Below are positions 1,732 to 62,706 of a stretch of DNA of 64,000 nt, in pieces; position 1 is the stretch's first letter; every line of letters begins with the position of its first letter. Source of the DNA: a virus (Duplodnaviria; Heunggongvirae; Uroviricota; Caudoviricetes); IMG/VR virus record IMGVR_UViG_3300037882_002341, positions 128,958-192,957 of that record; one strand, written 5' to 3'. The translations under genes and the position numbers were made by a program. The notes beneath the pieces were generated by a model, which did no database searches, was not told the DNA's origin, and worked only from the letters and a program-made list of their open reading frames with translations.

Positions 1732-1733
1732 CC

Positions 1734-12772: not shown

Positions 12773-13002
12773 AGTTTCTCCGGCTTATCTGTGTGTACTT
12801 TAACTTCGATAGTGACAGGAATAAGTTCATAACTACCATGAGAGTAGTAACGAACCGAGTCGATTGCATTACCTCTACGATGAAAACATTTATTAATAGA
12901 TGTTAGATTACGAGGATCATGCCCACTGTCTCTACCATGTATTACTCCAGTTGTTTTATTCCTTACAAGCCAATAGGTCTTTATACCATCTAGCTTGTGC
13001 AT
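12769..13002 (-). CDS. small protein, tandem paralog family A
   Basis: 77 aa; paralog of 12518..12772; its start overlaps the stop of the AAA+ gene. Confidence 0.4.
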   Translation of the reverse strand: MHKLDGIKTYWLVRNKTTGVIHGRDSGHDPRNLTSINKCFHRRGNAIDSVRYYSHGSYELIPVTIEVKVHTDKPEKL

Positions 13003-29600: not shown

Positions 29601-30167
29601 CATTTTAGTTACTATAACAGGTACATTATCTAGATCGGGTGGTTGCACCAGATAAGTCTTTGTCTTCCTGTCGTAATATCGCCAGCCCAGCATATACTTC
29701 TGAGGCAATCCACCCATACATGAGGTAAGACCCACAAGACCCTCTCTGTGCTCGTATAACATCTCCAGATCGACTCTTGGGTGTCTACTGAAGTGTTGGT
29801 CCAAAGAGGCCTTACGAAGCAACAGACAGAGGTTCTGATAGCCTTTAGAGTTCTTGGCCAGTAAGATAATATGACCCGTTGGGTTATCAAAGGAGTGAGG
29901 ATGATTTATAGCATCAGCTGAGCGTAAAGCAACATAGGCTTCCATGCCAAAAATGGGTTTAATATCCCATTTCTTACACTCTTTCCAAAATTCCACCACA
30001 CCAGCCATTGTTCCATGGTCAGTAATAGCGCATGCTTTCATGCCAAGTTTACTTACCATTTCAGGTAAGCCTATTACACCATTATCGGGATCACTTTTAA
30101 TAAGTGTAGTGGCATCTCCAAGACTAAAGTGAGTATGGGCATGTAGATGAACAAATTCTTTTGGCAA
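26607..30167 (-). CDS. dnaE: DNA polymerase III alpha subunit (DnaE-type; PHP plus Pol III alpha core)
   Basis: N-terminal PHP motif FVHLHAHTHFSLGDA, 1186 aa, the GSGAGS region and overall DnaE architecture. Confidence 0.85.
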   Translation of the reverse strand: MPKEFVHLHAHTHFSLGDATTLIKSDPDNGVIGLPEMVSKLGMKACAITDHGTMAGVVEFWKECKKWDIKPIFGMEAYVALRSADAINHPHSFDNPTGHIILLAKNSKGYQNLCLLLRKASLDQHFSRHPRVDLEMLYEHREGLVGLTSCMGGLPQKYMLGWRYYDRKTKTYLVQPPDLDNVPVIVTKMKDIFEPDSFFLEVQNHQVSDSVFLGMTEEQKTDYLWMKEAQHKVFTESWKVSRQTNVPMVVTNDLHYLTHDTMDSRQAVLAIGGRGFMNEKFSGTMADHVALDESEDSGGVHEITGQLYLKSPDEMAIASHFIDYPFLARNTLAVAEMIEEVDLSPLKDEKGRVKWNLPAIDLEPGETPISKLRAKALEGFDSRYPGDDKYPWRSKESRTNALKQLDYELSVMEKLGLESYHLMVADYVEFAHKNGIRVGPGRGSGAGSVVVYCLGITDLDPLRHGLLFERYLNPDRASAADLDVDFDPQRVDEIYQYCINKYGKENIARISSYASLHAKGSVRRLGRAMCLSPEWVNDISSQLDDESGETRTRLSSVIEDNRSRASGTIRKFKEAGGDLAQRFLDIAVKLDDIKISRGQHAAGIVVSGTSLDGLVPLVLHDRDDPTSIATEIPFDHLEDIGLLKQDLLVVDGLSIIDLAIKFIRKRSNPNFELLKEVDDTYDDEIALKIFSDGELAGIWQMSSSGMRELCVSLMPKDLNEIAAICALYRPGPLDYQDTDSSLNMVEMYVRRKHRLLPVTYDHPKLESILKETYGVVVFQEQIMFIARTMCDWTFTQADYLRKAVAKKKGIDKQKDLFIPDCLRATPEFGEHLTHKLWDMLETFGKYGFNKSHSAAYGKLSYQMAYIKGRYPVEFLAAAITIACDKGDKTRRIGLLHDFVSEANRKGISILAPDIEFSKAYAVPEGPSSIRLGFGACRGVASAGLKLEKIKEIIDREPEEILEHERKLSDLEKSLHSNTLAVEAAKKDDPFRLPFFKEEGKSIVKEIKELGPVPEIRYGLNSLTSAIRTVFATGVNKAVVLGLVHAGAFDRLGERNLVLAMVEEMSDLRSKKGKARMQKFFGLTDIELPKDIVPATAKERSDAAQEYLYLVLPTVDTPPPKKILCGFGQDKTEFFLGKLSILPSGETELSLLLQDSKNEVVISIGKFNHSDIFSLVRNVDGRVISIN

Positions 30168-35256: not shown

Positions 35257-36366
35257 CTATAAGGAGTTCCACTTATTAACAATTTCAATAATTCTGGTTT
35301 GATCTTGATCTGTTACCCACCAACCACAAGGTATAGCAACATTTCTTGCAGAGAAATAATCTATGCCTTTCCTATCTTCAGGAGACTCTGTCTTTGGTGG
35401 GAAACAAGGATGTCTATCGTTTCTTGCGTGTACAGGAGAGGCAGCAATATCGTGGACTTCTAGATACTTAATAAAAGCGTCTCTGTCTTCTACTAAAATA
35501 GTATAAATCCAGTAAGAAGAACGAGCATCATATAGAGGAACATAAACAACCCTCTTTCCAATTGCTAGTTCCTCACTATATCTCAATGCCTGTATTTGAG
35601 AATCAAAAACAGACAGCACCGCTTTGGTCATATTGGCTATACCAATAGCCGCAGCAATATTGTTCATTTGGAACTTAAAGCCAGATTCACCAATAGTTTG
35701 GCTACAGCGGAAGTTTTGACTACTCTTCCTGTCTAGACCATACCACTTAAGAAGCTCTGCTCTCTTTTCCATTCCGACAGGAACAACCAAGGCTCCGCCA
35801 TCACCAGTAGTGAGATGTTTAATGGCCTGAAAAGACCATGCTACATAATCCCCACCAGTATTAGAGATATGCTTACTTTTATATAAAGTAAGGAAGGAAT
35901 GGGCAGCATCCTCGATTATCGGTATGCCAGAAGCCACTTTCCTAATCTCATCATAATCTACAGGTGTACCACCCCAATCTACGCAAAGAATAGCTCTTAC
36001 CCTCTCTCCGTATTTATCGATAAGCTTACCAACAGAGTCTGCTGTAATATTTCCAGTAAACTGATCTACATCTGCCCAAAGTATCTTCCCACCTCTACTA
36101 ATAATAGCAGTATTAGAGGCTGTGCAAGTTTGCGGTGTGCTAATTACATAATCATCTTTTACTTCACACATGTGAAGAGCTAGTTCAAGAGCGCTAGTAC
36201 AACTATTGAGAGCTAATACTCTTCTTTCGCTTTGCCAATAAGATTTAAGTCTACTTTCAAATAGTTCTACCCACTCACCCTCACCAATGTAGCCAGACTT
36301 TAATACTTCAGCAACATTAGATAGACACTCTTCTGTTTCTACATTAACTTTAAAAAGTGGTATCAT
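35257..36366 (-). CDS. DegT/DnrJ/EryC1/StrS-type PLP-dependent sugar aminotransferase
   Basis: 369 aa; DYVISTPQTCTASNTAI and WSFQAIKHLTTGDGGALV with the PLP-binding Lys are typical of this family. Confidence 0.7.
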   Translation of the reverse strand: MIPLFKVNVETEECLSNVAEVLKSGYIGEGEWVELFESRLKSYWQSERRVLALNSCTSALELALHMCEVKDDYVISTPQTCTASNTAIISRGGKILWADVDQFTGNITADSVGKLIDKYGERVRAILCVDWGGTPVDYDEIRKVASGIPIIEDAAHSFLTLYKSKHISNTGGDYVAWSFQAIKHLTTGDGGALVVPVGMEKRAELLKWYGLDRKSSQNFRCSQTIGESGFKFQMNNIAAAIGIANMTKAVLSVFDSQIQALRYSEELAIGKRVVYVPLYDARSSYWIYTILVEDRDAFIKYLEVHDIAASPVHARNDRHPCFPPKTESPEDRKGIDYFSARNVAIPCGWWVTDQDQTRIIEIVNKWNSL

Positions 36367-37319
36367 TATTTACCATCTATTCTCATGCGACCGCATGAAG
36401 GATTCCATCCAGGATACCAAAATCCACCTTTTCTTATATGCTGATGCTCAATTTCCTGATTAGGCTTAACTCTAAGAGGGATAAATCCAGTCTCGAGAAA
36501 CATCTTATGGAAATCCTTCTCAGATTCTATATAAGTCTGACTTCTCTCATTATCCTTACTATAGGCTATGCCTCTCCCATCAAGAAAATCTCTACAGAGC
36601 TTTGCGGCATTAGGTATTCCACCCGCAATGCCACCAGAAAAGTGGTCACAAGAGATACCATTCACAGCAATCCACTTACCAGCTTTTAAGATCTCACAGC
36701 ACAAGATTCGATCATAAAAGTGCTCTGGAGCAAGATTTCCCTCTTGTGGAGTGGTATGAGCAACTAGATCAGAGGTACGGAATATTAGAGAGCAATGATC
36801 CAATACCGCAGCAGCAGCTAAGCCTGCCTCTCTTCTGCCATGTTGTTCCGCTTTCGAAGCCTGACCAATACCAGGATAAAAGGCCCCCAGGTAATTGAGC
36901 ATAGTGCCACCGCCTCTGCCACCACGCTCATCAATCTCATTAGATCCAACAAATCCCTGGAGAGCAAGTTGAGGATAGTTATCAAATGCATTTATGACTT
37001 TCTTGTCCCAACCCTTTTCACGGATATAAAGATCACAGTGGAGGAATGCCAAGAATTCTGGAATATCATTACCAAACCAGCGACCTTGTCTCCAACGATG
37101 GAAAACAGCATTTCCTCCAATGTTTTCTTCATATCTAATGATCTTAGTATTTCTAGACCACTCAAAATGGCTATACGGTGGCTCGCTTCCATTATCCACT
37201 AAGTAAACTTCTGTTAACTCTGGATCAGAGTTAGCTAAAGCATACCTGGTAGCCTCTGGAGTCTGAATAAAATTATTTACACCATAGATAACAACTACCA
37301 TACGCGGACTAGTCATCAA
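36366..37319 (-). CDS. glycosyltransferase family 2-like
   Basis: 317 aa; VVVIYGVNN ... YLVDNGSEPP resembles the GT2 N-terminal DNGS region. Confidence 0.4.
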   Translation of the reverse strand: MMTSPRMVVVIYGVNNFIQTPEATRYALANSDPELTEVYLVDNGSEPPYSHFEWSRNTKIIRYEENIGGNAVFHRWRQGRWFGNDIPEFLAFLHCDLYIREKGWDKKVINAFDNYPQLALQGFVGSNEIDERGGRGGGTMLNYLGAFYPGIGQASKAEQHGRREAGLAAAAVLDHCSLIFRTSDLVAHTTPQEGNLAPEHFYDRILCCEILKAGKWIAVNGISCDHFSGGIAGGIPNAAKLCRDFLDGRGIAYSKDNERSQTYIESEKDFHKMFLETGFIPLRVKPNQEIEHQHIRKGGFWYPGWNPSCGRMRIDGK

Positions 37320-40685: not shown

Positions 40686-41161
40686 TTTATCTTTATCTCA
40701 AATGTCAAGGCCACACTTTCTAAAGACACATTAGCCTCATTGAACATTAAGCTAGTAATCATCTGGTCCTGTTCCCATGCACCACTAGCACCAGAACCAA
40801 ATGTTCCGTCTGCATTGACCACAACTCTTGTAATTCCACTTTGGATAATAGATTTTGCACACTCTTTGCAAACAAATACCTTGTTACAGTATAGAGTTGC
40901 ACCAACTGGTCTTATTTGACAAAGATCAATAGCATTTCTCTCTGCATGAGCAACCAACTGATATTTCAATGGTCTATCTTTATATCTTTCTACTAAGTCT
41001 TCTACACCTCTAGGAAATCCATTAAAACCAGTTGACAGTACCTTATTGTCCTTTGTGAGGATAACTGCTCCGACCTTTGTACTAGGGTCCTTGCTCTTAA
41101 AAGAGACCACTTCAGCTAAAACAAGACCATATTCGTCCCACGTAAGAGCTCTATCAAGCAT
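40682..41161 (-). CDS. deoxycytidylate (dCMP) deaminase
   Basis: 159 aa; zinc motifs HAERNAI and CNKVFVCKECAK (PCxxC-type) with the allosteric-type spacing of phage/bacterial dCMP deaminases. Confidence 0.65.
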   Translation of the reverse strand: MLDRALTWDEYGLVLAEVVSFKSKDPSTKVGAVILTKDNKVLSTGFNGFPRGVEDLVERYKDRPLKYQLVAHAERNAIDLCQIRPVGATLYCNKVFVCKECAKSIIQSGITRVVVNADGTFGSGASGAWEQDQMITSLMFNEANVSLESVALTFEIKIK

Positions 41162-41723
41162 ATCTTCTCTCTAAATTTATATAATGGAAAAAGTCTTTTG
41201 CGCATTGTGCAAGATCATCTAATGTCCCATTATTAACAACTTCATGATCCCAGTCTTCCCAAGTATCCAGAGCCATATCAAATGAATCAGAAGAGTCACT
41301 TTCGATACCTGGTCTCTCGATCTTAATAAGTAGGCCATGATTTTCTCGAATATACGCAGCTTCATTGGGAAATCTCATATTAGTAATAATGGTGATCTGG
41401 TCGGGTGGCGAAGAAGCTATCAAACTCTTGATCATTGTGTCAGGATCAATTGATCTACACAAATTAGCTAAGCCCTTAGCTATAGTTCTAGGTGTTATAC
41501 CTTCTAGCTTTGCCAGATCTACATCTTTTTGTTCATAAAAAGAATTATAGTATTCTGCATTTCCAACACCAGCCCAGCCAAATAAGAGATTTGCAGCATT
41601 AAAAAGAGGATCTGATATTGATACCTTTCTTACTCTAACTCCATATTCCTTACACCTAAGCATAAGAAAATTAGCAAAGGTATCCTTACCCACATTTTTC
41701 TTATGGCCTAAACCTATAATCAT
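41154..41723 (-). CDS. deoxynucleoside monophosphate kinase (T4 gp1-like P-loop kinase)
   Basis: 189 aa; N-terminal MIIGLGHKKNVGKDTFANFL parallels T4 gp1 LIFLSGVKRSGKDTTADFI; coupled to the dCMP deaminase gene. Confidence 0.5.
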   Translation of the reverse strand: MIIGLGHKKNVGKDTFANFLMLRCKEYGVRVRKVSISDPLFNAANLLFGWAGVGNAEYYNSFYEQKDVDLAKLEGITPRTIAKGLANLCRSIDPDTMIKSLIASSPPDQITIITNMRFPNEAAYIRENHGLLIKIERPGIESDSSDSFDMALDTWEDWDHEVVNNGTLDDLAQCAKDFFHYINLERRYA

Positions 41724-41839: not shown

Positions 41840-43411
41840 CTACTTACGAATACGTTCTTTTACAAAATTACTAGCTTTGAGCTCTACTCTAGGAGAAGTG
41901 GACTCGGGTACATTGGCCGGAACAGTAATACCTTGTTCAGGTTCACAAAGATCAGAGAAATCCTTAACCGTTTCTTCAACAACAGAACCCTTACCCATTA
42001 GACTTGCAACACCTGCTGTTCCAAGACTTCTACCACGAAGAGAGTTATTAGATGCATAACGAAGAGAATTTCCTGTACTTACTTTATAAGATTGTGCAGT
42101 AAGGTCAGAACCAACTTGTGCACAATTCTGAAGAGCATGAGAAGCAAGAGCAGAACCTCTTGCTTCTAAATTCTTCCAATTAACTTCGACAGCACCACAA
42201 TAGACTTTTGCACCAGCCCAGTCTTGCAGATCAGCTTTAACAGAAGCTTCTAGATAAGCTTTGGCTGTTGTCAAAATAGCTAATTGCTCTGCAACAGTTA
42301 AATCAGATTCTTTATCAGCATCCTCTGCCTTAACATAAGAGACTTTAACAACTTCTTCTGTTTTATTAACAACTGCATCAATAACATTAAACCATGACAC
42401 AGTTAGACTTACAACAGTTGAGGCTCTTGGCTTAGCAGTGGGTACAGCAGGTAAGCTAAGCTTGATTAGAATATGTTTAGTTTCACCAGCATAGATATCA
42501 TCTACAGTAATAACCGCATTACCGTTAAGATCCTCGACCTTAAAATCATTAAGAATCTCAGAGACCTTAACGTCCTTATTAGGCTTAATGGTTAACTTGA
42601 TATTCTGCGCAACACAAGAAATAGCACCACCAAGCTCTTCAGCAAAAGCATCTCTAACCTGGTCAGCACTCTCAATATAATGATAGTTCCCACCACCTGC
42701 TTTTGCCATATCGGCCAAAAGTTCTTGATCTGCTGCATTGCCAAAACCAAAAGTACTAACTACAGTATTACTAGGTTTGGCAGAACAAATCTTAAGAAGA
42801 CCGTCTCTACTAAATTCTCCATGATTAGCATGACCATCGGTCATCAGGAGAATTCTTGTGGAACCAACAAAATCAGGTTTAACCTGTTCATAACCACTTA
42901 AAATACCACTTGAAGTATTTGTCATACTTCCAGGACGTATTTGAGAGATAGCAGCAAGAGCTAGATGCTTATTCTTAGCGTCTGTATTAGCACAAACAGT
43001 ATTACTAATACTATCAAAAGCTATAACGCTGATCCGATCCCCATCGTGAAGATACTCAACTAGCTTGTTGGCAACTTCCCTCATTACATATAGCTTAGTT
43101 TTGAAGTCATATGGGAATTTTGTATTTGATACCGATACGCCACTAACACAAGGTTCTCCCATTGAGCCAGATACATCAAGAACAAGTACGATCTGAACCG
43201 GTACTCTCTTATTAGCCTCTAGGCTAGGAGCGGTAACAGAAACCATAAGATGGTTTTCTTTAGCGACTGTGCGATCTACCTTTGAGAACTCCATACGTGT
43301 ACGAAACTGCAGACTATCAGACATTTGTTTTTCCTTATTAGGGTCTGTGAAGTCTATTATCCTTTCTGGTGGGCTCCTCAAGCCCCTACATACAGGAAAC
43401 AAGTACTTCAA
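41840..43411 (-). CDS. VWA-domain protein
   Basis: 523 aa; MIDAS VLVLDVSGSMG, further DGHANHG and TFGFG segments. Confidence 0.55.
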   Translation of the reverse strand: MKYLFPVCRGLRSPPERIIDFTDPNKEKQMSDSLQFRTRMEFSKVDRTVAKENHLMVSVTAPSLEANKRVPVQIVLVLDVSGSMGEPCVSGVSVSNTKFPYDFKTKLYVMREVANKLVEYLHDGDRISVIAFDSISNTVCANTDAKNKHLALAAISQIRPGSMTNTSSGILSGYEQVKPDFVGSTRILLMTDGHANHGEFSRDGLLKICSAKPSNTVVSTFGFGNAADQELLADMAKAGGGNYHYIESADQVRDAFAEELGGAISCVAQNIKLTIKPNKDVKVSEILNDFKVEDLNGNAVITVDDIYAGETKHILIKLSLPAVPTAKPRASTVVSLTVSWFNVIDAVVNKTEEVVKVSYVKAEDADKESDLTVAEQLAILTTAKAYLEASVKADLQDWAGAKVYCGAVEVNWKNLEARGSALASHALQNCAQVGSDLTAQSYKVSTGNSLRYASNNSLRGRSLGTAGVASLMGKGSVVEETVKDFSDLCEPEQGITVPANVPESTSPRVELKASNFVKERIRK

Positions 43412-43904: not shown

Positions 43905-44675
43905 TTAGGATAGAGGATAAAGGATGTAATCCTTCATAGGACCAAAGATACGTTTCTGTTCAATTGCATGGCAGTTAGCGCGTGCTCTAGCTTCAACAAC
44001 GGCGTTCTTAAGCTTAATAGCTCTCTCAATAAGTTCAGACTTCTGATGTGTAGTGGGGAGACTAGTCCACTGATACTTAGTAACATTACCAACAACTACA
44101 TCCTTAACCTGCTTAACCACCTGAGCAGCATGTTCTTTAGTAGCAGGAACAACCGTAAGGAACTCCTCAATCTTCGAGGTTCTATGCCTCACGATGGGAC
44201 TAGCCTGAAGAACATTAGCTCCCATACTGTTATCAGGAGCAAATCCCATTGCAGGATCAGCTGTAGGAATGCTCTCAATGAGCTTAATAATCTGATTGAA
44301 TCGCTTTTCAAGATGAACAAGGAAGGTAGAGGGAACTCCTGTAGCGAATACCTCTCCATCAACAACAATATCTGCTTTAGCTTCACAGTTAGCAAGATCA
44401 ATAGTATGCAGAAGATCAATAGTTTCCGCAAACTTATTAAAAATAAAGCCAGCTTCCTTAGCAACAGTCGTTACTAAAGGAGTTTCATCTTCAACAACAG
44501 GCTGAGCTAACTCTCCCTCTTTCTCACTGTTAGGAGTAAATACAGTCTTACTCTTCTTAAAGAGCTGATGCTTATCCTTAAAGGTGCTCATATGCTCCTT
44601 TAACAGAGCATCAATCTCACCCTCTTTAGTGGTCTTAACAGCGAGAAGTTCATGAAGCTTACTACTCTTTGCCAT
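43905..44675 (-). CDS. hypothetical protein
   Basis: 256 aa. Confidence 0.4.
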   Translation of the reverse strand: MAKSSKLHELLAVKTTKEGEIDALLKEHMSTFKDKHQLFKKSKTVFTPNSEKEGELAQPVVEDETPLVTTVAKEAGFIFNKFAETIDLLHTIDLANCEAKADIVVDGEVFATGVPSTFLVHLEKRFNQIIKLIESIPTADPAMGFAPDNSMGANVLQASPIVRHRTSKIEEFLTVVPATKEHAAQVVKQVKDVVVGNVTKYQWTSLPTTHQKSELIERAIKLKNAVVEARARANCHAIEQKRIFGPMKDYILYPLS

Positions 44676-44781: not shown

Positions 44782-45807
44782 TTATTTTGAAATCTCCTTT
44801 AGATCAAGAAGCATGGTAGGCGAACCGGACATCACAACACCTGGAACTGTACCAGCCCACTTCTGAATCTGATGAAGTTGAAGGACTCGTGCTCCGTCTG
44901 TCCCAGACAGAGATTCTGCAAGACGCAAGTTTGCATTTGCCTCTGCCGTAGAAGTTGCGGTGCGGTAGTAGGCATCTGTATCAGCTTTTGCCGTAAACGT
45001 TACGGTACGGTGATAAGCTTCTGCATCAGCCTTAAGTCGCTGAGCATCTGCAGCACCACGCGCTGCCTCAATTGCGGCGTCTGCTACGCCTGCTGCTTGA
45101 GCTTTAGTAATTTCTGCCTGTTTCTCTGCTGACTGAAGCTCATACGTCTTCTGAAGAGCACGCTGTTCCTGAACCTGTTTTTCTTCAATTGCTTTTGTAT
45201 AATCATCAGAGAAGTCAATATTCCGCATACTAACTTCAACAAGCGCAATACCGTATTTCCCCAACCATTCTGCTATATCAGCCTGAATTGCATCTTTAAT
45301 TGAAGCCCGATTCTGAAGAATCTCAGAGGCATTGTGGTTTGCCATTTCGGCTTTAGCCACTTCCTGTTCCGCATTCGGTATAATAACAGAAGCCCAGTCA
45401 ATACCGATTTCACGGTAAATACGCGGAGCCGTTGCTGCAGTAAGACGGTAGTTTGAGCCAAGGATAAGATTTACTTCCTGTAAATCCTTTGAAGCTGCAG
45501 CAAGATTATCTTCACGAGCTTGGACCTGCACATTCATCTTAACAACATTAACAAGTGGATTGATGAAATGTGCACCAGCCTCAAGTGGAGTGTCTTCTAC
45601 ATCGCCAAAAAGCACCACAACACCGACATGACCAGCTGGAACAGTGGTCCAGCTTGCTATAGTGACAAGTACGATAGGTGCGATTGAGCCCACACCGTAA
45701 AAAATCTTACCGCCGATACGCTCGGCCGGATCCTTTGATCCAGTTAACTTTTTCCCAACAGGAAAACAAATAGCAACTAACAAAAGAGCAACTATCAGTA
45801 AGATCAT
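44782..45807 (-). CDS. SPFH/band-7 family membrane protein (HflC/prohibitin-like)
   Basis: 341 aa; N-terminal TM helix MILLIVALLLVAICF, SPFH core, Ala/Glu/Gln-rich coiled-coil C-terminus. Confidence 0.6.
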   Translation of the reverse strand: MILLIVALLLVAICFPVGKKLTGSKDPAERIGGKIFYGVGSIAPIVLVTIASWTTVPAGHVGVVVLFGDVEDTPLEAGAHFINPLVNVVKMNVQVQAREDNLAAASKDLQEVNLILGSNYRLTAATAPRIYREIGIDWASVIIPNAEQEVAKAEMANHNASEILQNRASIKDAIQADIAEWLGKYGIALVEVSMRNIDFSDDYTKAIEEKQVQEQRALQKTYELQSAEKQAEITKAQAAGVADAAIEAARGAADAQRLKADAEAYHRTVTFTAKADTDAYYRTATSTAEANANLRLAESLSGTDGARVLQLHQIQKWAGTVPGVVMSGSPTMLLDLKEISK

Positions 45808-45986: not shown

Positions 45987-46018
45987 TGGTGGACCCGGGG
46001 GGTATCGAACCCCCGTCC
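45987..46018 (-). other. orphan tRNA 3'-end-like minihelix (GGAC / T-arm / CGG-GTCC-A-CCA)
   Basis: The minus strand reads GGAC-GGGGG-TTCGATA-CCCCC-CGGGTCC-A-CCA. It has a T-arm, an acceptor 3' strand and an encoded CCA. No canonical 5' half lies upstream; only a 4-nt GGAC can pair with GTCC. Confidence 0.4.
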
Positions 46019-46426
46019 TGAGTTCTTTCTAATTATCTTACTACACGTTTATCTACTTTTAAGTTGTAGCAAACTTGGGGTGTAGAACACCTCCACCAGG
46101 ATCTTTAATGTCATATCCAAGACATACTGCATTTAAGACATACCCACACTTGTATCCATGGTAGGGGTCACCACGTGTTCCCGAAGGAACAAGTCCAATT
46201 AGGCACAGAGAGCGAGCTTAGACGAGCGATAGTCGCTCATCTTGAACACAGGGGTGTTACCACCCCAGCTTGCAGCAAACTCACTGGCGGTCATCGGAGC
46301 CACATCCTTGATGTTGGCAGATAGTTTTCCCTATCATTTTTAACGTGGCCAAGATAGGATCCACGACGTGCAAGATAAATCGAACAGAACCAGTCGATTC
46401 CAGTCGGGCCCTTTATTTCAAAGAAG

Positions 46427-47717: not shown

Positions 47718-47792
47718 TGGTGCCCTTAGTAGGATTTGAACCTACAAAAACAGCTTAGAAGGCTGTCGTTTTTCCAATTAGACTATAAGGGC
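47718..47792 (-). tRNA. tRNA-Arg (anticodon UCU), CCA encoded
   Basis: Cloverleaf: acceptor GCCCTTA/TAAGGGC 7/7, D-arm GTCT-AATTGGAA-AAAC, anticodon arm ACAGC-CTTCTAA-GCTGT, T-arm GTAGG-TTCAAAT-CCTAC, discriminator A and CCA; 75 nt. Confidence 0.8.
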
Positions 47793-47799
47793 AATAGAT

Positions 47800-49290
47800 T
47801 TAGTTAGCTAATAATCTCTCTCTAATTTCACCAAGAGTACATTCACGTACCATGATTCCATTACTATAAACAAGTTTAAGTAAACCACCAGGTTCTTCTT
47901 CAAGTGAGCATTGATCTATGACAAAGAAGTTTCCTTCATCATCCTGTTCTACACAGAGTAAACCGGTTGCGGATTTCTTGTCACCATTATCAGTAATTGG
48001 ATCTTTACTAAGATTTCTTTGTTCACCATTAACAATACCAAAGGTGGTCTTAATGGCAAATCCATGTGTATCTCTAGTTACATATTGATATGTATAACTA
48101 CCGATACCAAGAACTATATTACTAGAACAGAATCCCTTTAACATAAGCCCATGTAAAATGTCTTCTGCTCTAGTATAGTTTATGGCATCGCCATATATTA
48201 GACCAACTCTTGGATTCAGAACACGGAACCCTGCTGAATTAACCGCCCCACCAAAAGTTTCCCAGAGACACTGTATAGCCCCTTTAAAAGCGGGACTACC
48301 GGGTTCTGCACCGGAATCACCAAGGACTATTTTAACAGGATCTCCAGAATCGGGTCTAAAGACTACTTTAGCAAAACCTAATTCATTAGGTTTTCTTGCC
48401 AAAATCTCTTCTCTTAAAATATTAGCTGTACTAGTAATAACATTCCAGAAATTCCAGGTGTCGGAAACAATAGAAACAATACCTGTAGGGTTAACCTTAG
48501 TAATAATCCTACGGATAGTTTCTATTTCATTGTTTCTCTCTCCCATGCACATAACAGAATGTTCTGTTGCGGGTACACTTCCACCTATAAACTGAGTTCT
48601 TCCATAGTAGTAGTCTTCTAGATAATCTATAGCAGGAATAGTATCTGTACCAAGGAAGGAAAGCAAGTGTGCTGCGCCGGATTTTGCAGCATCCTCAATA
48701 CCACTCATGCCACGGAAACTAAAGTCATGTCCCTGAAAAGGAACAAATTCTTTAGAACCACCAGTCAAGTTTGCATAGTGATCAAAGAGTAATCTAAATT
48801 TATAGGCAGTTGTTGCACTGGTCGTCATTTTCCAGAGTTCTGCAGAAAGAGCAGTCTCTAGATAATTAACTAACCAGTAGAAATCAGAATGAGTATTATG
48901 AATAGTAAAGAGAGGAACATTAATGTTAACTCGAGAGCCTTCGGGTAATGCAGAAATAGAGATAGGTAGATAACCAAGCTTATGTAAAGCAAGGATATGA
49001 TCTACCTTAACTACTCCTTGACCAAGACTGGAATTCATTCTTCTAAGATAGCGATCTCTTATGTCCTGTGCGGGTAATGCAAAGAACTCTTTTCCCCATT
49101 TATCTATTAAGAGATCCTTTATTACACCTTGCAATCCAAAGAAAACAACTTTATCTCCCAATAGACCAGGATCAGAGTGTCTATTGGATCTAGGAGTAAA
49201 GTTTGAGTAGACGAATTGCGTTCCATCTGGATACTGATAGATATGTCCAGACTTATAGAAATCAATAGCACTTTCAGGACGAATTCTCAT
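47800..49290 (-). CDS. nadV: nicotinamide phosphoribosyltransferase (NAMPT/NadV)
   Basis: 496 aa; N-terminal [25 protein letters not shown] parallels NAMPT [33 protein letters not shown] ... [10 protein letters not shown] and [11 protein letters not shown] match NAMPT active-site segments. Confidence 0.75.
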   Translation of the reverse strand: [496 protein letters not shown]

Positions 49291-50117
49291 GAAACTATCC
49301 TTAAACGCGATTCACATAAAAAGGGTCTTGCACCAGGTAGAACATTTTTGCAAAAGATTACATTATATATTTGTAACAAATGTTCAATACCACGTGAGAA
49401 TATGCCATGACTAACATATAAATAAATAGGACCAGTTGTTATTTCTTTTAATCTTCCACCCAAGTTGATGAAAGTTCTTCCTCCATCACAAATATCATCT
49501 ACAACTAATAGAGATTCATTTCCAAGATTTTCAGAATAAACCTTGGCATCAGTAACATTACCCGTTTGGGAATCTCTCTTTTTATCTGCTTTAATAACCC
49601 TTATACCTAGGGATTTACCAACACTCTCTACTTTTTTATTTGCTCCTGCGTCAGGAGATACAAGAGTAAACTCACCGAAGTCCCTAAGTATCCTTGCTAC
49701 AGTATCATTTATCGTACTAATTCGTATATTGTTAACTAAAGCGCCAACTACATCACTATGTGGATCGAAGACACTAACCTTACTAAAACCCAATCCATTA
49801 ATAAAGTCAGCTACTACTTTAACAGATAAGCTCTCTCCCTTATTACACACTCTATCTTGTCTAGCATAGGGAAAATAAGGTACATCTAGTTGTATTTCGG
49901 GAGTAACAAAAGAAGATCTTCTTATTGCATCAACGAGTAGAGCAAGATTCCAAAGATCATTATTGCTTTCAAATTCCAGTAATATCCTAAAAAACTGCCA
50001 GTTTGGTTGGTTAAGCGTAATCTGCTTAACATCCAATAGGGTTTCCCCTGCGGGAAATCGTTCAAGCTTTATAGGTATTTCAGTAGTTCCAAAACTATTT
50101 ACATATAATCTTAACAA
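49287..50117 (-). CDS. prs: ribose-phosphate pyrophosphokinase (PRPP synthetase)
   Basis: 276 aa; DAIRRSS ... VPYFPYARQDR matches the Prs DALRRASA ... IPYFGYARQDR signature, and LLVVDDICDGGRT is the PRPP-binding loop. Confidence 0.65.
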   Translation of the reverse strand: MLRLYVNSFGTTEIPIKLERFPAGETLLDVKQITLNQPNWQFFRILLEFESNNDLWNLALLVDAIRRSSFVTPEIQLDVPYFPYARQDRVCNKGESLSVKVVADFINGLGFSKVSVFDPHSDVVGALVNNIRISTINDTVARILRDFGEFTLVSPDAGANKKVESVGKSLGIRVIKADKKRDSQTGNVTDAKVYSENLGNESLLVVDDICDGGRTFINLGGRLKEITTGPIYLYVSHGIFSRGIEHLLQIYNVIFCKNVLPGARPFLCESRLRIVS

Positions 50118-50124
50118 TTTCTAC

Positions 50125-50358
50125 CTAAACTTTCTTAGTTTTACCATCTACTGTAACATTAATAAAGATAGGCATGTTCTCTAATTTTCCATCAATACGA
50201 CAGATCATTTCTTCCCATATCGTCCACTCGATAATATTCTTTGTTATAAGTTCATTTACATTATCAAAGAGAAAAGCTCTCCACTCTCTTAGCTTATTAG
50301 CATCTTTACATCCTTTAATCTCTAACATAGTAGGAGGCTTAATCTTTTTATCTTGCAT
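50125..50358 (-). CDS. hypothetical protein
   Basis: 77 aa. Confidence 0.3.
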   Translation of the reverse strand: MQDKKIKPPTMLEIKGCKDANKLREWRAFLFDNVNELITKNIIEWTIWEEMICRIDGKLENMPIFINVTVDGKTKKV

Positions 50359-52246
50359 CAGGATTCTTTATAGAGTTTTTAGCAGGGCCATCTATTGCTG
50401 CAACAGTTTCTACAAGTACCTGCATTCCAGCAGGCGTATCCCCTAATAGGGCACGGAGGGTATTCGGCATGCCTCTAGAGATTATTACAATAGCTTTGCT
50501 GGGATCAAGAGACTGTCCTGCGGTAGAAGCTATATCGGGTAGAAGTCCTTCTCCAGTAAGCGGTCTATCTGTTCCAACAGCAGAAAGCCGTCTACTGGAT
50601 ATACCAGATTTAACAATACGCATCCAGGGAACATATCCCCAAAAGACCTTATTGGGTAATAGCCCACACTTAAAATAAGCTTCGCTTTTTCTTCTATGAT
50701 TCATAGAAGCCCAAGTGAAGCTTAAGGGATGTTCGTCACCCATAGCAATAATTTGTTTCCCAGTAGCTTCATGTTCTTTACCTATTGCTGCTTCAAGAAG
50801 CATACCTAGGGTACCTCTTTTAAATATGCTTCTATGGGATACACAAATATCCACAATCCTACCTTCTATTACGGGCATTTCATTGTTCGGAAGAACAATA
50901 ACAACTCCCTTACAACCAGAGAAACAAGTAATCTTATCACCCGTTCTCATAGGAAGGAAACTACGTAAGGAGAAGATTGTTCTAACACCAAGAACACCTG
51001 CATAATAAGCAGGTATAGTCTCAATAGTCTCTAAAATAGCTTCTTCTTTAAGTTCAGAGGCAATAAGAGAAATTCTTGTTTCTTCTTCCTCTTTAACAGA
51101 AGAATCTATTTTCTCTGAAGAGTTCTCTACTACTATATTCTTAATTCTTGTTGCAAGCAAACCAAAGGGTTTAACAAGATCTCCCTTTTGAACACTTAAA
51201 TTAACAAGAGGCTCAGGAGACCATCTTGTTATTCTAGTGACAGATTGCGCTTCCATATGGATAGCACAAGTCTCAGACATAGCAATAGTGTCTTCGAAGG
51301 TCGAGGGTCCAAGATCCATAACTGCAGTAAGAAGATTTCTAGTCTGGACTATTGATCCTTCTGCTTGAACAGGTCTAGCTTGAGGATAAGTAAGTTCACA
51401 AGAGTTCATTACAGCAGCTCTTGCTAAGCAAGCTCTGCTAGGACTTAAGTCCAAAAGAACAGTATTTCTTCTTGTGAACTCACAAAATTGGCTTATACCC
51501 TTTGTTATCTGACCTCTTTCAACACGAGCCCCATCACAAAGAGTATAAATACTATTGATAGTTTCAGATGAACTTGTTGAACAAGGATCGAGTCTAAAGA
51601 GCATTTCTTCAGGGAACTTAAGAGGGTCAATCTTTATACCATCTTTACGATGGTATAAAAGTACCATGTCTTTTGATCCTCTAATCTGTACTTCTGAATT
51701 CTGTACCTGTCTAACAAAAGGATGAGTCACTAATCTAGAAAGAAGCAAAGATTGCAATCTTTCATTATTAATATGAACTATGCCAAAGGCATTGGTCTGG
51801 AAGAAGAAGTTGGCAAGAGGAGAGTAATTATTACTATTAGTGTCCCCAGCAGGTACCATTACTCCCTTACTGCCAAACATTCCTTCGAGTACACGAATTG
51901 CTACTTTATTCTTATCCAGAAAGTGGTACTTACCATTTGAAAACGGTTCCCAAGGACTAACAAAACCAACATTTACAAAGGTAAAAAGAGTTGAACCAAC
52001 TACAAAGAAACCATCTTTATTGGGCCTAGGTAAAGTGAATTTTACAGGGCTTCTTACCCAGAATCCCTTAGCAACTCTTCCCTCAATAAATCCTTCATAA
52101 CTAATATTTTCCAAATTACCAATAGAAGAATTCTCTTGGGAAGTAGCACGCATTATCTTTGCGGATACGGTGACAAAGAGACCATAAGGTCTCACGGGTA
52201 GGACATTTTCCCCAAAGTCCCTATAATACCTGGCAGGAAGAAACAT
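50348..52246 (-). CDS. multisubunit RNA polymerase beta-subunit-like protein (C-terminal module)
   Basis: 632 aa; RTGDKITCFSGCKGVVIVLP corresponds to the universally conserved beta GDK-x3-RHGNKGV motif, and downstream LEAAIGKE matches the beta anchor region. Confidence 0.5.
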   Translation of the reverse strand: MFLPARYYRDFGENVLPVRPYGLFVTVSAKIMRATSQENSSIGNLENISYEGFIEGRVAKGFWVRSPVKFTLPRPNKDGFFVVGSTLFTFVNVGFVSPWEPFSNGKYHFLDKNKVAIRVLEGMFGSKGVMVPAGDTNSNNYSPLANFFFQTNAFGIVHINNERLQSLLLSRLVTHPFVRQVQNSEVQIRGSKDMVLLYHRKDGIKIDPLKFPEEMLFRLDPCSTSSSETINSIYTLCDGARVERGQITKGISQFCEFTRRNTVLLDLSPSRACLARAAVMNSCELTYPQARPVQAEGSIVQTRNLLTAVMDLGPSTFEDTIAMSETCAIHMEAQSVTRITRWSPEPLVNLSVQKGDLVKPFGLLATRIKNIVVENSSEKIDSSVKEEEETRISLIASELKEEAILETIETIPAYYAGVLGVRTIFSLRSFLPMRTGDKITCFSGCKGVVIVLPNNEMPVIEGRIVDICVSHRSIFKRGTLGMLLEAAIGKEHEATGKQIIAMGDEHPLSFTWASMNHRRKSEAYFKCGLLPNKVFWGYVPWMRIVKSGISSRRLSAVGTDRPLTGEGLLPDIASTAGQSLDPSKAIVIISRGMPNTLRALLGDTPAGMQVLVETVAAIDGPAKNSIKNPDAR

Positions 52247-53955
52247 TATTTTGTCTCCCAGATATATCTGAAAACAGAACCTCTATCTTCCCGATCCAAG
52301 TGAAACACGTGGCTAAAGAGACATATAGCTCTATCCAGGTCTGACCCAATAGTCTTATGGGTTAAAGCGAAACCAGGATAGTAAGTGTTAACAAGTTCAG
52401 TTAATCCTATTACATACTTTTCTTTTATCTCTCTGTTCACATCTTTATGATTTATCTCTGTCCCAAGAATACCTGACATATCCTTTGCTATTTCATCCAA
52501 GACAGAGACAAAACATCCTAATTTCCTATTAGCATTACCATTACTATCAATAGTAAGCTCTCTTAACTTACTAATGTAATACTCTTTTCTATCTTTTAGA
52601 TTTACTTCTATAAAGAGTATTACAGGTAACTCAAGCCTAAAATGGTAGACTATTCTTGATGCATCTTCTTCCTTGATACCTGCTCTAACAAGTAAATCTA
52701 TAGATTCAGATATAGTGGAATTCTTCCACTTACTGCGCCTTTCGAACATTTCCATAATATCTATTGGACTAAATGTTCTTTCCTCGGATATCTTATGCTT
52801 TGCATCAAGTGTAGCTTGTTGAATAGTTTCCGAAAATCTATTTGCCGCACTAGAGAGCCAAGGATCCTCTCCCATAATGAGCAATATTCTTCTTGCTGTT
52901 GCACCAACTATTCCAAGATAACCTTTCATAAAGAGGTTGGCAAAGTTGGTTTCCAGTATAATCTTATTACGGGTTTCTTTCTTACTAGAGATATCCTTAT
53001 TCACGATACCTCTATCGATTTTACCGGTAATCTTTTCCATTTCACGGACTGTATTTGTGGGTGAAATCCATCCACACACATCACCAGGTCCATAGGAAAA
53101 TCCATTAACTGTAAAACGATTTAAGGTATCTTGTATTATATTAGACCAATCAGGATCTTCTGGGAGATTATCATGACAAAGATACTTAGGCCATTTTGCA
53201 TGAAGCAAAGTGTGCTTAAGCAAATTGTCATTCATCTCTCTCAGAACTTCTGGTTCCTGAGGAGGCTTTACAAAAGCAACTTGATCACCATCGCAATCTG
53301 CATTTAACTGTTTAAACAAGAGAGGATGTAAAGCAATAACATTATCATCTATAGGATAAGCTCTAACAACTTCCATAGAACCAGTCCAAATTACAGGATC
53401 TCTGAAGATTATTATTAAATCTCCCTCTTTGATACCTGTATTCTTCATTGCAATAGTGCTTATTCCCACCCATTCTGGACTACGAGAAATCTGGGGGATA
53501 AGTACCAATCTACCAGAGTGTGCCATTCTGGTACCACTTATATTAGTGGCTATTACACCTCTATTGCCTATGACTCTATTCATTAGGCTTAAGTAGAAAA
53601 GCTTAACAAGTCTTTCAATTACAACTATACTAAGGTTACCTTCGTTTTGCTCGAAGTACGCAAGTAACTGATTACCTGCTACTGTTACAGGGTGAAGGAA
53701 GACCATTTCTCCCGATTTCTCAATTCTTCCATCGGGGGAAAGAGCAGGAATCATTATATGATTTATTGTTCTACCAAAAGGATCAGATACAAAAAAATTC
53801 TGAGGTAAATTGATCCGAGCTCCTCTTTTAAGGATAGCAGGATCAATTAATGTATCTTTAACATCTTTAGGTATTTGACCAAGTCTGACAGTTCTTCCTA
53901 CATCAAGAGTTGTAATATCAGAGTCTAAACTTACTTTAAGCCTAATGGCTTTCAT
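52246..53955 (-). CDS. multisubunit RNA polymerase beta'-subunit-like protein (catalytic NADFDGD module)
   Basis: 569 aa; GTRMAHSGRLVLIPQ matches beta' GKRVDYSGRSVIVVGP, and DPVIWTGSMEVVRAYPIDDNVIALHPLLFKQLNADCDGDQVAFV matches beta' NRAPTLHRLGIQAFEP ... [21 protein letters not shown], including the Mg-binding aspartates. Confidence 0.7.
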   Translation of the reverse strand: MKAIRLKVSLDSDITTLDVGRTVRLGQIPKDVKDTLIDPAILKRGARINLPQNFFVSDPFGRTINHIMIPALSPDGRIEKSGEMVFLHPVTVAGNQLLAYFEQNEGNLSIVVIERLVKLFYLSLMNRVIGNRGVIATNISGTRMAHSGRLVLIPQISRSPEWVGISTIAMKNTGIKEGDLIIIFRDPVIWTGSMEVVRAYPIDDNVIALHPLLFKQLNADCDGDQVAFVKPPQEPEVLREMNDNLLKHTLLHAKWPKYLCHDNLPEDPDWSNIIQDTLNRFTVNGFSYGPGDVCGWISPTNTVREMEKITGKIDRGIVNKDISSKKETRNKIILETNFANLFMKGYLGIVGATARRILLIMGEDPWLSSAANRFSETIQQATLDAKHKISEERTFSPIDIMEMFERRSKWKNSTISESIDLLVRAGIKEEDASRIVYHFRLELPVILFIEVNLKDRKEYYISKLRELTIDSNGNANRKLGCFVSVLDEIAKDMSGILGTEINHKDVNREIKEKYVIGLTELVNTYYPGFALTHKTIGSDLDRAICLFSHVFHLDREDRGSVFRYIWETK

Positions 53956-54331
53956 AAGGATCTTCCTCTATATTCTCTTCTTCTTTATCTTCAGTAGAAG
54001 AAAACTCTGTAGGAACAAAATCCGTATTCATAGTCAGATTAATAGGTGATCTATGTCCTGATTTAAGATTCTCAGTAAGGATCCAGCGAACACCAACTAT
54101 AGGTATTACTAGAAACCTTGCGCCTGTTAGCTTTGAAGTACCTATATCAAACTCTTTACTCGATCCACATATCACTCCACCGCTTTTACCTGATATAAGT
54201 AACTCAGCTCCTTGGCGTAAGACCTCTAGTAATTCCGAGTTCGCAGGCAATCTACAAAGAAATCCCTCAGGATTCATTAACGTGGCTTCCCATCCATTTG
54301 GGCCGCCTCTTGACATGAATCCGTTTAGCAC
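53942..54331 (-). CDS. hypothetical protein
   Basis: 129 aa; overlaps the beta'-like gene start; could be another RNAP fragment. Confidence 0.35.
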   Translation of the reverse strand: MLNGFMSRGGPNGWEATLMNPEGFLCRLPANSELLEVLRQGAELLISGKSGGVICGSSKEFDIGTSKLTGARFLVIPIVGVRWILTENLKSGHRSPINLTMNTDFVPTEFSSTEDKEEENIEEDPYESH

Positions 54332-54361: not shown

Positions 54362-54799
54362 CTACTCTGCCTCACTACATAGAACACTTAGTCTACTTTC
54401 AGTATTACCAAACCATCGAGAAAGATCTTGTCTAGCTTTCTCACGATTTGTGCGGTTATTCCCTGGTAAACCCACCATGACCAAGTCATTTCTAGTTACA
54501 AAATCATTTTCACTAGAACCTGACATTATTCCAAATATAGCAGTAGAAAGAAGGTCTTTATCATAAGAACCTGTTTTATCTAGTGTTCTTATAAAGATAA
54601 CATTCTCTTCTGAAACAAATTTCAGGGGATGACTGCCAGAACTTCTTAACCATACCGTACAAGCAGGGAGAAGATGTATACCTAAAACTCTTCCTATTTC
54701 AATTTGCTCATCTTCCAATAAATTCTGAGCATCTGGAATAATGACAGTTTGGTTTTTACGTAATTCTCTTAATCTAGAGATATTAGTAACGAGGATCAT
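54362..54799 (-). CDS. hypothetical protein
   Basis: 145 aa. Confidence 0.4.
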   Translation of the reverse strand: MILVTNISRLRELRKNQTVIIPDAQNLLEDEQIEIGRVLGIHLLPACTVWLRSSGSHPLKFVSEENVIFIRTLDKTGSYDKDLLSTAIFGIMSGSSENDFVTRNDLVMVGLPGNNRTNREKARQDLSRWFGNTESRLSVLCSEAE

Positions 54800-54950
54800 T
54801 CTTCCTCTTTTTCTTGATTAGACACTTTATCTTCAACCATTGATCTAATAGATCGATTGCGTAGATCCCTATTTTTAACAGAGGTTTTTTCAGAAACTCT
54901 GCTACTTTTTGTACTACGCTTTTTGGATCCTTTTTCAGGTTTTCTGTTTT

Positions 54951-55223
54951 TCAATTACTCCCACTCTTTAGATTTGAGATAACCATTCCACAAGTTACCA
55001 TACTAAGTAAACAACCAAAACTTAGGATAAACATAGCATAGTCTTTATAAATAATAAAAGCTGTCATTAGCCCAAATGCACTAAGCATATTAAAGACAAT
55101 TACAAAGAACAAAACAGTGGCCAGTGGCATTTTCAGTAGGAATAAAACAAGCATGTCGAAGAGAGAAAATTCTCCATGTTCTAGTATTTCTTTCGCAACA
55201 TCTTCCTTTTCTTCTTCAGACAT
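54951..55223 (-). CDS. small membrane protein (two predicted TM helices)
   Basis: 90 aa; hydrophobic stretches LFLLKMPLATVLFFVIVFNMLSAFGLMTAFIIY and FILSFGCLLSMVTCGMVI. Confidence 0.4.
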   Translation of the reverse strand: MSEEEKEDVAKEILEHGEFSLFDMLVLFLLKMPLATVLFFVIVFNMLSAFGLMTAFIIYKDYAMFILSFGCLLSMVTCGMVISNLKSGSN

Positions 55224-59818: not shown

Positions 59819-60244
59819 TTATCTAATAACAAATTCCATACTATGCTTAATTTCAATGATATGTATAACTCTATTTCTACTTTCATCTACTATTTGGTTA
59901 TACCAATCTGTATATAAGATTCTCTTAACACCACTTTTAATAAGAAGAGACATGCAAGCTTTGCATGGTCTGGCCATACTAATAGCGGTACTATTCTTTG
60001 TAAGTCTTACTACAAATACGGTAGAATCTTTTATATCTCTACCGCTATTGTTGAACATTGCTAATTCAGCATGAGTCTTGCGTGTTCTATTTAATGCCTG
60101 AGTGCTTGTTTTATGAGGGTCATTACAGCCTATACCTATGATTCTTCCATTTCTATAGGCTGACGCTCCTACTTTATATCGAGATCCCTCTGAGATCTGT
60201 GCTACATCTAGAGCGGCTTTTACTAGTCTATCTATGATAGCCAT
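59819..60244 (-). CDS. cytidine/deoxycytidylate deaminase-fold protein (second deaminase)
   Basis: 141 aa; zinc motifs HAELAMF and PCKACMSLL (H-A-E ... P-C-x-x-C). Confidence 0.5.
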   Translation of the reverse strand: MAIIDRLVKAALDVAQISEGSRYKVGASAYRNGRIIGIGCNDPHKTSTQALNRTRKTHAELAMFNNSGRDIKDSTVFVVRLTKNSTAISMARPCKACMSLLIKSGVKRILYTDWYNQIVDESRNRVIHIIEIKHSMEFVIR

Positions 60245-60784: not shown

Positions 60785-60861
60785 TGGTAGGCTCGGTGAG
60801 ACTCGAACTCACTGTCACCCGATTATGAGTCGGACGCTTATACCACTTAAGCTTCGAGCCC
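60785..60861 (-). tRNA. tRNA-Met (anticodon CAU; elongator-type or Ile2-type), CCA encoded
   Basis: Cloverleaf: acceptor GGGCTCG/CGAGCCT, D-arm GCTT-AAGTGGTAT-AAGC, anticodon arm TCCGA-CTCATAA-TCGGG, variable TGACA, T-arm GTGAG-TTCGAGT-CTCAC, discriminator A and CCA. The anticodon stem lacks the three G-C pairs of initiator tRNA. Confidence 0.75.
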
Positions 60862-62256: not shown

Positions 62257-62706
62257 TTAGAGCTCCGAACGAACTTTCATTAAGATCTTGCCTAGATGAT
62301 TAAGACCATTCCTATTATGCTCTCTGCATATACATATGCCCCAAAAGAGGTCATGCCACCAAGTTTCTTCTACTAGTTCTTCTTCTCCAGTAGCTTTTAA
62401 AGATTCTCTAAGTACTGGATTAGTAAACTTTGCTCTAACTATATCTTCCATGAATCTAAGTTTAACTCTATCCCAGTCTTTTCTTAAAGTTACCTTTTGT
62501 CCTGCTTCTTTAGCATTCTTAGGCTTAAGAAATCTTATTTCCTCTTGCTCATTTAGATCAAGGGTCTTCATTGCCTGATAAGCAGCTTCTGAACTTAACC
62601 AATTTCTTCCGTCGAACTCAAAGTTAGATTCAAAGAAGTTGCTCAGGAATCCGTAATTGCTTCCACTTCTAAAGTATATTATCATTTTAGGTCCACATGT
62701 GTCCAC
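62257..62706 (-). CDS. NADAR-domain protein (YbiA-like; NAD/ADP-ribose-associated)
   Basis: 149 aa; IYFRSGSNYGFLSNFFESNFEFDGRNWLSSEAAYQAMK parallels E. coli YbiA INFYSTSDDYGDFSNFAAWPIKVDGKTWPTSEHYFQAQK, and ETWWHDLFWG parallels YbiA DAYWGDG. Confidence 0.65.
   Translation of the reverse strand: MDTCGPKMIIYFRSGSNYGFLSNFFESNFEFDGRNWLSSEAAYQAMKTLDLNEQEEIRFLKPKNAKEAGQKVTLRKDWDRVKLRFMEDIVRAKFTNPVLRESLKATGEEELVEETWWHDLFWGICICREHNRNGLNHLGKILMKVRSEL

Follow-up and report, generated by a model that had tools for sequence, protein, structure and literature searches.

Do two adjacent genes of a large uncultivated phage encode the catalytic subunits of an RNA polymerase (RNAP), and if so, are these subunits whole or split into modules? 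The question was raised by an earlier note, made from the sequence alone, on a 64,000-nucleotide (nt) stretch of a Caudoviricetes genome record (IMG/VR record IMGVR_UViG_3300037882_002341, positions 128,958 to 192,957), hereafter called the window. That note had described diverged beta' and beta genes, separated into modules in the manner of the phiKZ and AR9 enzymes. Both open reading frames (ORFs) were confirmed at exactly the coordinates that it gave, on the minus strand: 52246-53955, coding for a protein of 569 amino acids (aa), and 50348-52246, coding for one of 632 aa. Their identity as diverged beta' and beta in a large phage was borne out, and the split was not. With a probability of about 0.78 by our own estimate, the pair represents compact, unsplit catalytic subunits of an active phage DNA-dependent RNAP of the multisubunit lineage, acting with a third subunit.

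Profile searches established the homology of the two proteins. The 632-aa protein matched Pfam RNA_pol_Rpb2_6 with 36.1 bits, above the gathering cutoff of 23.4, and the PHROG family "RNA polymerase beta subunit" with an E value of 5e-12. The 569-aa protein scored 23.9 against Pfam RNA_pol_Rpb1_2, slightly below the threshold of 25.3. Profiles built from homologues scored far stronger than these single-sequence Pfam matches. When compared with the PDB, the beta profile had its best match in the AR9 non-virion beta C subunit (7S00_C; E = 7e-18) and matched bacterial beta with an E value of about 1e-14. The beta' profile, built from 79 sequences, matched residues 313 to 488 of bacterial beta' with an E value of 5e-26, and the best matches of its region C-D were bacterial and cyanobacterial. 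Pfam, PHROG and PDB profile matches thus confirm that the two genes code for strongly diverged relatives of RNAP beta' and beta. The HHpred-style and structural comparison suggested in the earlier note thus recovered RNAP homology, but not the split layout of phiKZ and AR9. Together the two proteins comprise 1201 aa, or 44% of the length of Escherichia coli beta plus beta'.

The sequence motifs on which the original identification was based could be placed precisely. HSGRLVLIPQ corresponds to residues 146 to 155 and LHPLLFKQLNADCDGDQVAF to residues 209 to 228 of the 569-aa protein, while GDKITCFSGCKGVVIV corresponds to residues 436 to 451 of the 632-aa protein. The latter two had been read correctly as the Mg-binding loop of beta' and the GDK...KG loop of beta, and the invariant residues of both are conserved. 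The Mg2+-binding loop NADCDGDQ covers beta' residues 218 to 225 (codons 53281 to 53304 on the minus strand, computed from the ORF start) and contains the DxDGD aspartate triad of the beta'-type barrel, D220, D222 and D224. R185-x-P187 lies in FRDPVIW, which aligned to bacterial NRAPTLH. In beta, the GDK...KG loop GDKITCFSGCKG (residues 436 to 447; codons 50906 to 50941, minus strand) pairs with E. coli residues 1063 to 1074, and the motif TFEDT (residues 316 to 320, with TFED at 316 to 319) pairs with NFEDS within E. coli residues 811 to 819. K438, K446 and E318/D319 align to E. coli K1065, K1073 and E813/D814.

Eight residues are invariant in all two-barrel polymerases according to Ruprich-Robert and Thuriaux, namely, R446, P448 and D479/481/483 of Rpb1 and D837, K979 and K987 of Rpb2 (PMC2919709). 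All eight are present here, as R185, P187, D220, D222 and D224 in beta' and D319, K438 and K446 in beta. Among 79 beta' representatives diverged to about 20% identity, R143, R185, P187, D220, D222, G223, D224 and K344 were invariant. Among 15 beta sequences, D319, K438 and K446 were invariant and E318 was at least 90% conserved. The beta' double-psi barrel would provide D220/D222/D224 for Mg2+ together with R185/P187, and the beta barrel would provide K438/K446 and E318/D319, so that the two barrels may form a standard Mg-dependent nucleotidyl-transfer center. The replacement of cellular RHGN by FSGC in beta, which had been singled out as notable, is real, but the positions concerned vary within the family, and the two universal lysines are kept. 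Positions 442 to 445 and their surroundings read CFSGC, DRSCC, TRGAI or GFAGC in family members. They deviate elsewhere too, with GRYGN (RYGN) in AR9 and FTSAA (TSAA) in the Cobetia phage Carin-5. These substitutions are no sign of inactivity.

On profile, motif and model evidence, the 632-aa protein is a compact, unsplit beta-like catalytic subunit. Near its N terminus, the motif LPRPNKDGFFVVGSTLFTFVNVGFVSPW (residues 72 to 99) pairs with E. coli residues 128 to 156; in the beta profile, this landmark (LPRPNKDGFFVVGSTLF..SPW) is a weak domain, yet it aligns in register with the same E. coli segment. A fork-like motif, LDPCSTSSSETIN (residues 219 to 231), pairs with CPIETPEGPNIGL, the CPIETPEG block at E. 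coli residues 559 to 571, and was also covered by the hhalign comparison with Carin-5. The beta barrel carries a flap-type (SBHM) insert at about residues 344 to 430. Toward the C terminus, residues 406 to 605 align with E. coli beta residues 1034 to 1293. Within this region, a C-terminal block (residues 540 to 603) pairs with E. coli residues 1230 to 1293, and AGQSLDPSK (residues 576 to 584) stands opposite GGQRFGEME. The landmarks are thus colinear across E. coli residues ~128 to ~1293, and the N-terminal motif, the fork motif, the SBHM flap insert and the C-terminal block are all features of the multisubunit lineage. A structural model of the protein superposed on 440 to 482 residues of the full-length second-largest subunits of plastid RNAP, Pol I, African swine fever virus, bacteria and vaccinia virus, which is nearly all of the confidently modeled beta residues. 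The same model covered 279 residues of AR9 beta C, 188 residues of AR9 beta N and 277 residues of the phiKZ equivalent of beta C. Because of the colinear landmarks from the N to the C terminus and the superposition on full-length beta, we conclude that beta is unsplit.

The 569-aa protein, a compact beta'-like catalytic subunit by the same kinds of evidence, likewise crosses the site at which other enzymes are divided. N-terminal to the barrel, it has the switch-2/region C motif (GKxGRxRxNLxGKRVDxSxRxVI; residues 130 to 152), in which G133, R143, R149 and V151 are conserved. Region C begins at residue 130 here versus residue 333 in E. coli beta', and the first 121 residues stand in place of the first 323 residues of the E. 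coli protein. On the other side, the chain runs on for 340 residues past the barrel. Its model superposed on 255 to 299 residues of full-length largest subunits versus 134 to 162 residues of subunits that represent only the N-terminal half; therefore, the protein extends across the phiKZ/AR9/cyanobacterial split site. Two elements beyond the barrel may belong to the catalytic machinery. One is a 36-residue modeled helix (residues 326 to 361) in which K344 is invariant and G348 and G351 are nearly invariant among the 79 representatives. The other follows in a modeled helix (residues 368 to 387) that ends with E376-x3-Q380-x-TLD-x-K386-H387 and leads into a disordered tip; E376, Q380 and K386 are conserved. 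Because SETIQQATLDAKH (residues 375 to 387) resembles GEPGTQLTMRTFH of E. coli, we infer from the model that these are a putative bridge helix and a putative trigger loop, respectively. The two sequences lined up only in a search limited to that region. The remainder of the protein (residues ~440 to 569) is a helical C-terminal domain that varies among clades.

Both genes are part of a densely overlapping operon in the order 52 aa, 145 aa, 129 aa, beta', beta and 77 aa, all on the minus strand. The 129-aa protein (53942-54331) has a GTG start, a GGAGG ribosome-binding site and an acidic C-terminal tail. The 145-aa gene (54362-54799) lies 30 nt upstream of it and is conserved only in the closer clade, as is the 77-aa gene (50125-50358) at the other end. 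A lysine/arginine-rich micro-ORF of 52 aa with a TTG start (54796-54954) is found at the same position in relatives, again of the closer clade only. Neighboring genes overlap by 4 nt (52 aa and 145 aa), 14 nt (129 aa and beta'), 1 nt (beta' and beta, TAATG) and 11 nt (beta and 77 aa). An apparent conservation of the DNA upstream proved to be the signal of this coding micro-ORF; tblastn matched the latter with E values of 2e-8 and 2e-6 in the related loci L012 and L001 (locus numbers of this form denote relatives), and weak syntenic matches were found in L004 and L011. A predicted membrane protein of 90 aa (54951-55223, minus strand) ends 4 nt inside the micro-ORF, and genes similar in size occupy the same position in L011 and L012.

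The earlier note had suggested that the two ORFs upstream of beta' (53942-54331 and 54362-54799) could be further RNAP fragments. Neither showed detectable homology to beta, beta', alpha or omega. Nevertheless, the 129-aa protein is a conserved partner across the whole family. Sixteen loci have a gene for a homologue of 111 to 159 aa directly upstream of beta', some of them distant, with a beta' of only 25 to 35% identity, and the homologue often has an acidic tail. Wherever a locus was long enough, the genes follow each other as ~125-aa protein, beta' and beta, down to about 25% identity, with a compact beta of 551 to 646 aa directly after the compact beta'. Because the ~125-aa gene lies directly upstream of beta' throughout the family, we propose it as a candidate third subunit that may serve in assembly or promoter specificity. 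The source gene call for this protein is 124 aa long (P0173); the GTG codon with GGAGG and the conserved MLNGF N terminus of the orthologues favor the longer form. In phiKZ/AR9-type enzymes, the fifth subunits gp68 and gp226 are much larger than this partner. Searches of the 129-, 145- and 77-aa proteins against Pfam, PHROG and PDB profiles and by hhalign against omega, alpha and the beta' N terminus gave nothing significant. The 129-aa family had probabilities of 3.6 and 0.1 against E. coli omega and alpha, and the 77-aa protein had no meaningful match in the PDB. The best match among the small proteins, an FtsK gamma winged helix with an E value of 0.084, was treated as noise.

The pair defines a family of compact enzymes found so far in metagenomes only. 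Word-indexed searches returned only 10 relatives per protein, in every case with both proteins on one contig. When 1.84 billion representatives were searched exhaustively by profile, 587 proteins reached an E value of ≤1e-3, and 52 of them one of ≤1e-30. Compact beta'-like proteins (430 to 650 aa, matched over most of their length) formed about 85 clusters at 50% identity, and the next tier consisted of proteins of 1400 to 1860 aa that matched in the barrel only. All the family members checked were metagenomic proteins. Among 50,697 GenBank phage records, tblastn with both proteins and two distant members gave no match at an E value of 1e-5 or 1e-3; up to an E value of 10, only short barrel matches appeared, in phiKZ-like, AR9-like, Carin-5 and Arash phages. 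A scan of GTDB genomes found no relative, and a search of IMG/VR found a single weak locus. Scanning metagenomes contributed another ten loci, from a variety of environments, among them a microbial mat. Three large single-chain proteins also matched the family profiles and may be fused beta/beta'-type polymerases: a 996-aa protein (L010, 7328-10318) matched both profiles, the 1525-aa gp206 of Salmonella phage Arash (L009, 3682-8259), encoded beside the portal gene, matched the beta profile, and a protein of 1828 aa (L023, 605-6091) matched the beta' profile.

The genomic surroundings bear on when the enzyme would act. The window is dense and phage-like, with 87 of its 89 ORFs of 70 aa or longer on the minus strand, a GC content of about 0.40 and a uniformly negative GC skew. 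The RNAP genes sit among genes for replication and nucleotide metabolism. These include a DnaE-type Pol III alpha subunit with a PHP domain (1186 aa), an SF2/ResIII helicase and a UvsX/RecA recombinase (26607-30167, 24503-26596 and 7342-8691, respectively; minus strand), together with nicotinamide phosphoribosyltransferase (NAMPT) and PRPP synthetase. Because of this neighborhood, the enzyme is probably non-virion and made after infection. In this uncultivated phage of at least 193 kb, each subunit is one undivided chain pared down to about the conserved core, and the enzyme would probably transcribe phage genes without recourse to the RNAP and sigma factors of the host, as jumbo-phage enzymes do.

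Several observations weigh against the proposal of an active compact RNAP with a third subunit. The small partner is without recognizable fold or homology, and its role is deduced from synteny only. Regions A and B at the N terminus of beta' (Zn finger and clamp) and region H at its C terminus were not detected; the 569-aa protein gave no signal for Pfam Rpb1_1, Rpb1_3, Rpb1_4 or Rpb1_5, and its profile matches are limited to regions C-D. Support for the bridge helix and trigger loop comes from an AlphaFold model from 10 sequences (pLDDT, 77.9) and from motif resemblance; a sub-profile of this region found no match in the PDB, and Smith-Waterman alignment to E. coli beta' scored no higher than with shuffled sequences. 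The beta model had a pLDDT of 68 with the last 86 residues unmodeled, and the models were built on shallow alignments. A phage promoter motif upstream of genes, which the earlier note had recommended looking for, was not found: k-mer enrichment in 27 intergenic regions gave only ACTATTTA, in 5 regions and without extended conservation, TTTTACTATAAG with up to 2 mismatches had 14 matches versus 13.97 expected, and sigma-70-like sites were not enriched (20 versus 28.1 expected). The window covers 64 kb of a 193-kb contig, and further subunits may be encoded elsewhere.

Other explanations were weighed against the same data. Had the enzyme been split in the phiKZ/AR9 fashion, the two ORFs would be a beta' N-module and a beta C-module, with the other modules elsewhere or in the small ORFs. 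This would fit with the AR9 non-virion beta C subunit as the best PDB match of the beta profile, with the frequent dispersal of jumbo-phage RNAP genes (PMC7598289) and with the failure to detect beta' regions A/B and H in a window that is one third of the contig. However, beta has its N-terminal landmark, and its superposition over 440 to 482 residues includes the part held by beta N in AR9 and phiKZ. Beta' aligns with 255 to 299 residues of full-length largest subunits against 134 to 162 of the N-terminal halves, and the small ORFs resemble none of beta, beta', alpha and omega. Nor did any window ORF of 185 aa or more, or the 10 kb on either side of the loci in relatives, show a further RNAP domain. 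A split is therefore unlikely. A 529-aa ORF (10919-12508) considered as a missing module had no match in Pfam, PHROG or the PDB. No second RNAP set was detected in the window by hmmsearch. The window ORFs that were scanned contained no alpha or omega domain, and neither they nor the cassette contained a sigma domain.

A two-barrel polymerase could also have a role other than general phage transcription, such as primer synthesis for DnaE or RNA-templated synthesis as in the YonO/QDE-1 branch. The position of the genes amid those for DnaE, the helicase, UvsX, NAMPT and PRPP synthetase, in a window where no primase was recognized, would suit such a role, but the missing primase is uninformative when only a third of the genome is covered. 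Moreover, switch 2/region C, the SBHM flap and the beta C-terminal block mark the DNA-dependent branch and are missing in RNA-dependent RNA polymerases and YonO types (PMC2919709, PMC7824862), which makes this role quite improbable. Least probable of all, with a very slim chance, is that the genes are remnants of an RNAP, in decay or catalytically dead, with FSGC as a mark of lost function. Cellular RHGN positions have indeed been replaced, and much of the canonical subunits is missing. Yet all eight catalytic residues are strictly conserved in a family whose divergence reaches about 20% identity, every relative keeps intact, syntenic ORFs, and the RHGN positions deviate in AR9 and Carin-5 as well. 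We therefore favor an active, compact and unsplit pair. A further-reaching proposal is that beta', beta and the ~125-aa partner make up the smallest self-sufficient RNAP of the multisubunit lineage, with about 1,200 aa of catalytic subunits and no alpha, omega or sigma, the partner being a new assembly or promoter-specificity factor. This is tentative, and we consider it somewhat doubtful.

Other genes in the window were recorded alongside. Directly downstream of the RNAP operon lies a NAD salvage pair, NAMPT and PRPP synthetase (47800-49290 and 49287-50117, respectively; minus strand), which is syntenic in L001 to L003; a NADAR domain protein is encoded further upstream (62257-62706, minus strand). 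Among GenBank phages, no relative of the window DnaE exceeds 33% identity. A full-length tmRNA gene (45987-46411, minus strand) matched Rfam RF00023 with 113 bits versus a gathering cutoff of 47 (E = 2e-43); it lies in an apparent intergenic gap of 619 nt and was not called by ARAGORN. Phage-encoded tmRNAs have been reported in huge phages. Genes for tRNA-Arg(TCT) (47718-47792) and tRNA-Met(CAT) (60785-60861), both on the minus strand, were called by both ARAGORN and Rfam. Three GT4 glycosyltransferases, a GT2-like protein, a DegT/EryC1 aminotransferase, a UDG-superfamily protein, a dCMP deaminase and a dNMP kinase are also encoded (511-4462, 21917-23113 and 35257-37319; 21003-21962, 59819-60244 and 41154-41723; all minus strand), which together might indicate a sugar-based modification of DNA or of the surface. 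A MoxR-type AAA ATPase, a VWA-domain protein, an SPFH/Band-7 protein and a DUF7873 protein are encoded at 13002-14534, 41840-43411, 44782-45807 and 43905-44675 on the minus strand. DUF7873 also occurs near the RNAP genes in L004. In relatives, a TROVE/Ro60-like protein is encoded just upstream of the RNAP operon (L001, 6785-8665; also L002 and L003), and an EF-Tu homologue with PTH2 is found near the RNAP genes (L011, 17825-19003).

Multisubunit RNAPs normally have a mass of about 400 kDa, and the known phage versions are either full beta/beta' in four to five pieces (phiKZ and AR9) or single chains of the YonO/crAss branch. A two-gene beta/beta' enzyme that keeps flap, fork and switch 2 minus over half the mass would show which parts of the cellular enzyme are dispensable. 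As a small and tractable system, it could serve structural and mechanistic work and orthogonal transcription, and the family would give reconstructions of RNAP evolution a further branch. The ~125-aa gene, linked throughout the family, points to an as yet uncharacterized initiation or assembly factor. If the smallest self-sufficient enzyme were indeed present, nature would supply a minimal model of beta/beta' transcription, and phage RNAPs would have a further lineage that is distinct and widespread.

How does the proposed enzyme compare with known systems? It would work like the polymerases of jumbo phages and of the mReC group. The phiKZ and AR9 enzymes have a beta' divided after the barrel and a beta divided into two to three polypeptides, the four to five core polypeptides summing to full-length subunits (PMC7598289). 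In common with these, the present enzyme is phage encoded, with highly diverged beta and beta', no alpha, omega or sigma homologue and an extra noncanonical subunit, here the candidate ~125-aa protein. Unlike them, each subunit is one short polypeptide that spans their split sites, and one set was seen in the 64-kb window. The mReC enzymes were found with hidden Markov models from cellular beta/beta' (COG0085/COG0086), chosen for enzymes alignable with cellular ones (PMC7481178). Unsplit subunits, adjacent genes and the order beta' then beta are shared with mReC and Carin-5. In Carin-5, however, a sigma gene precedes a beta' of 1083 aa and a beta of 927 aa, 1.5 to 1.9 times longer than the proteins of 569 and 632 aa described here, in which the ~125-aa protein occupies the position of sigma and no sigma was found. 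By hhalign, the beta profile matched Carin-5 beta with a probability of 95.8 and an E value of 6.6e-9 over 316 columns including the fork motif, while the match of the beta' profile to Carin-5 beta' was marginal (probability, 7.5).

Single-chain two-barrel phage RNAPs, such as YonO, P23-45 gp96 and gp66 of the crAss-like phage phi14:2, are without the SBHM flap insert (PMC7824862). In the YonO type, both barrels are in one polypeptide, whereas the present enzyme is encoded in two ORFs and has, in the multisubunit manner, a flap insert, a fork motif and a C-terminal beta block. The compact two-gene form is not described in reviews of 2020, 2021 and 2026 (PMC7598289, PMC7824862 and PMC13282480) or in the results of targeted literature searches, which is not proof of absence. 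Compared with the bacterial core enzyme, it has no detectable Zn-binding/clamp N terminus, lobes, SI insertions, region H, alpha or omega, and the gene order is reversed.

The metal loop of LEF-9 is NTDCDGD, compared with NADCDGD here. LEF-9 was among the Foldseek matches with an E value of 6e-4, with TM-scores of only 0.17. Subunits LEF-9 and LEF-8 of baculoviruses and nudiviruses are reduced to little beyond the two barrels, switch 2 and the funnel (PMC2919709). Unlike the present pair, they belong to the late RNAP of insect viruses, are thought to derive from eukaryotic Rpb1/Rpb2 and have LEF-4 and p47 as partners. LEF-8/LEF-9 is the closest analogy in the degree of reduction, a convergent miniaturization of unrelated origin.

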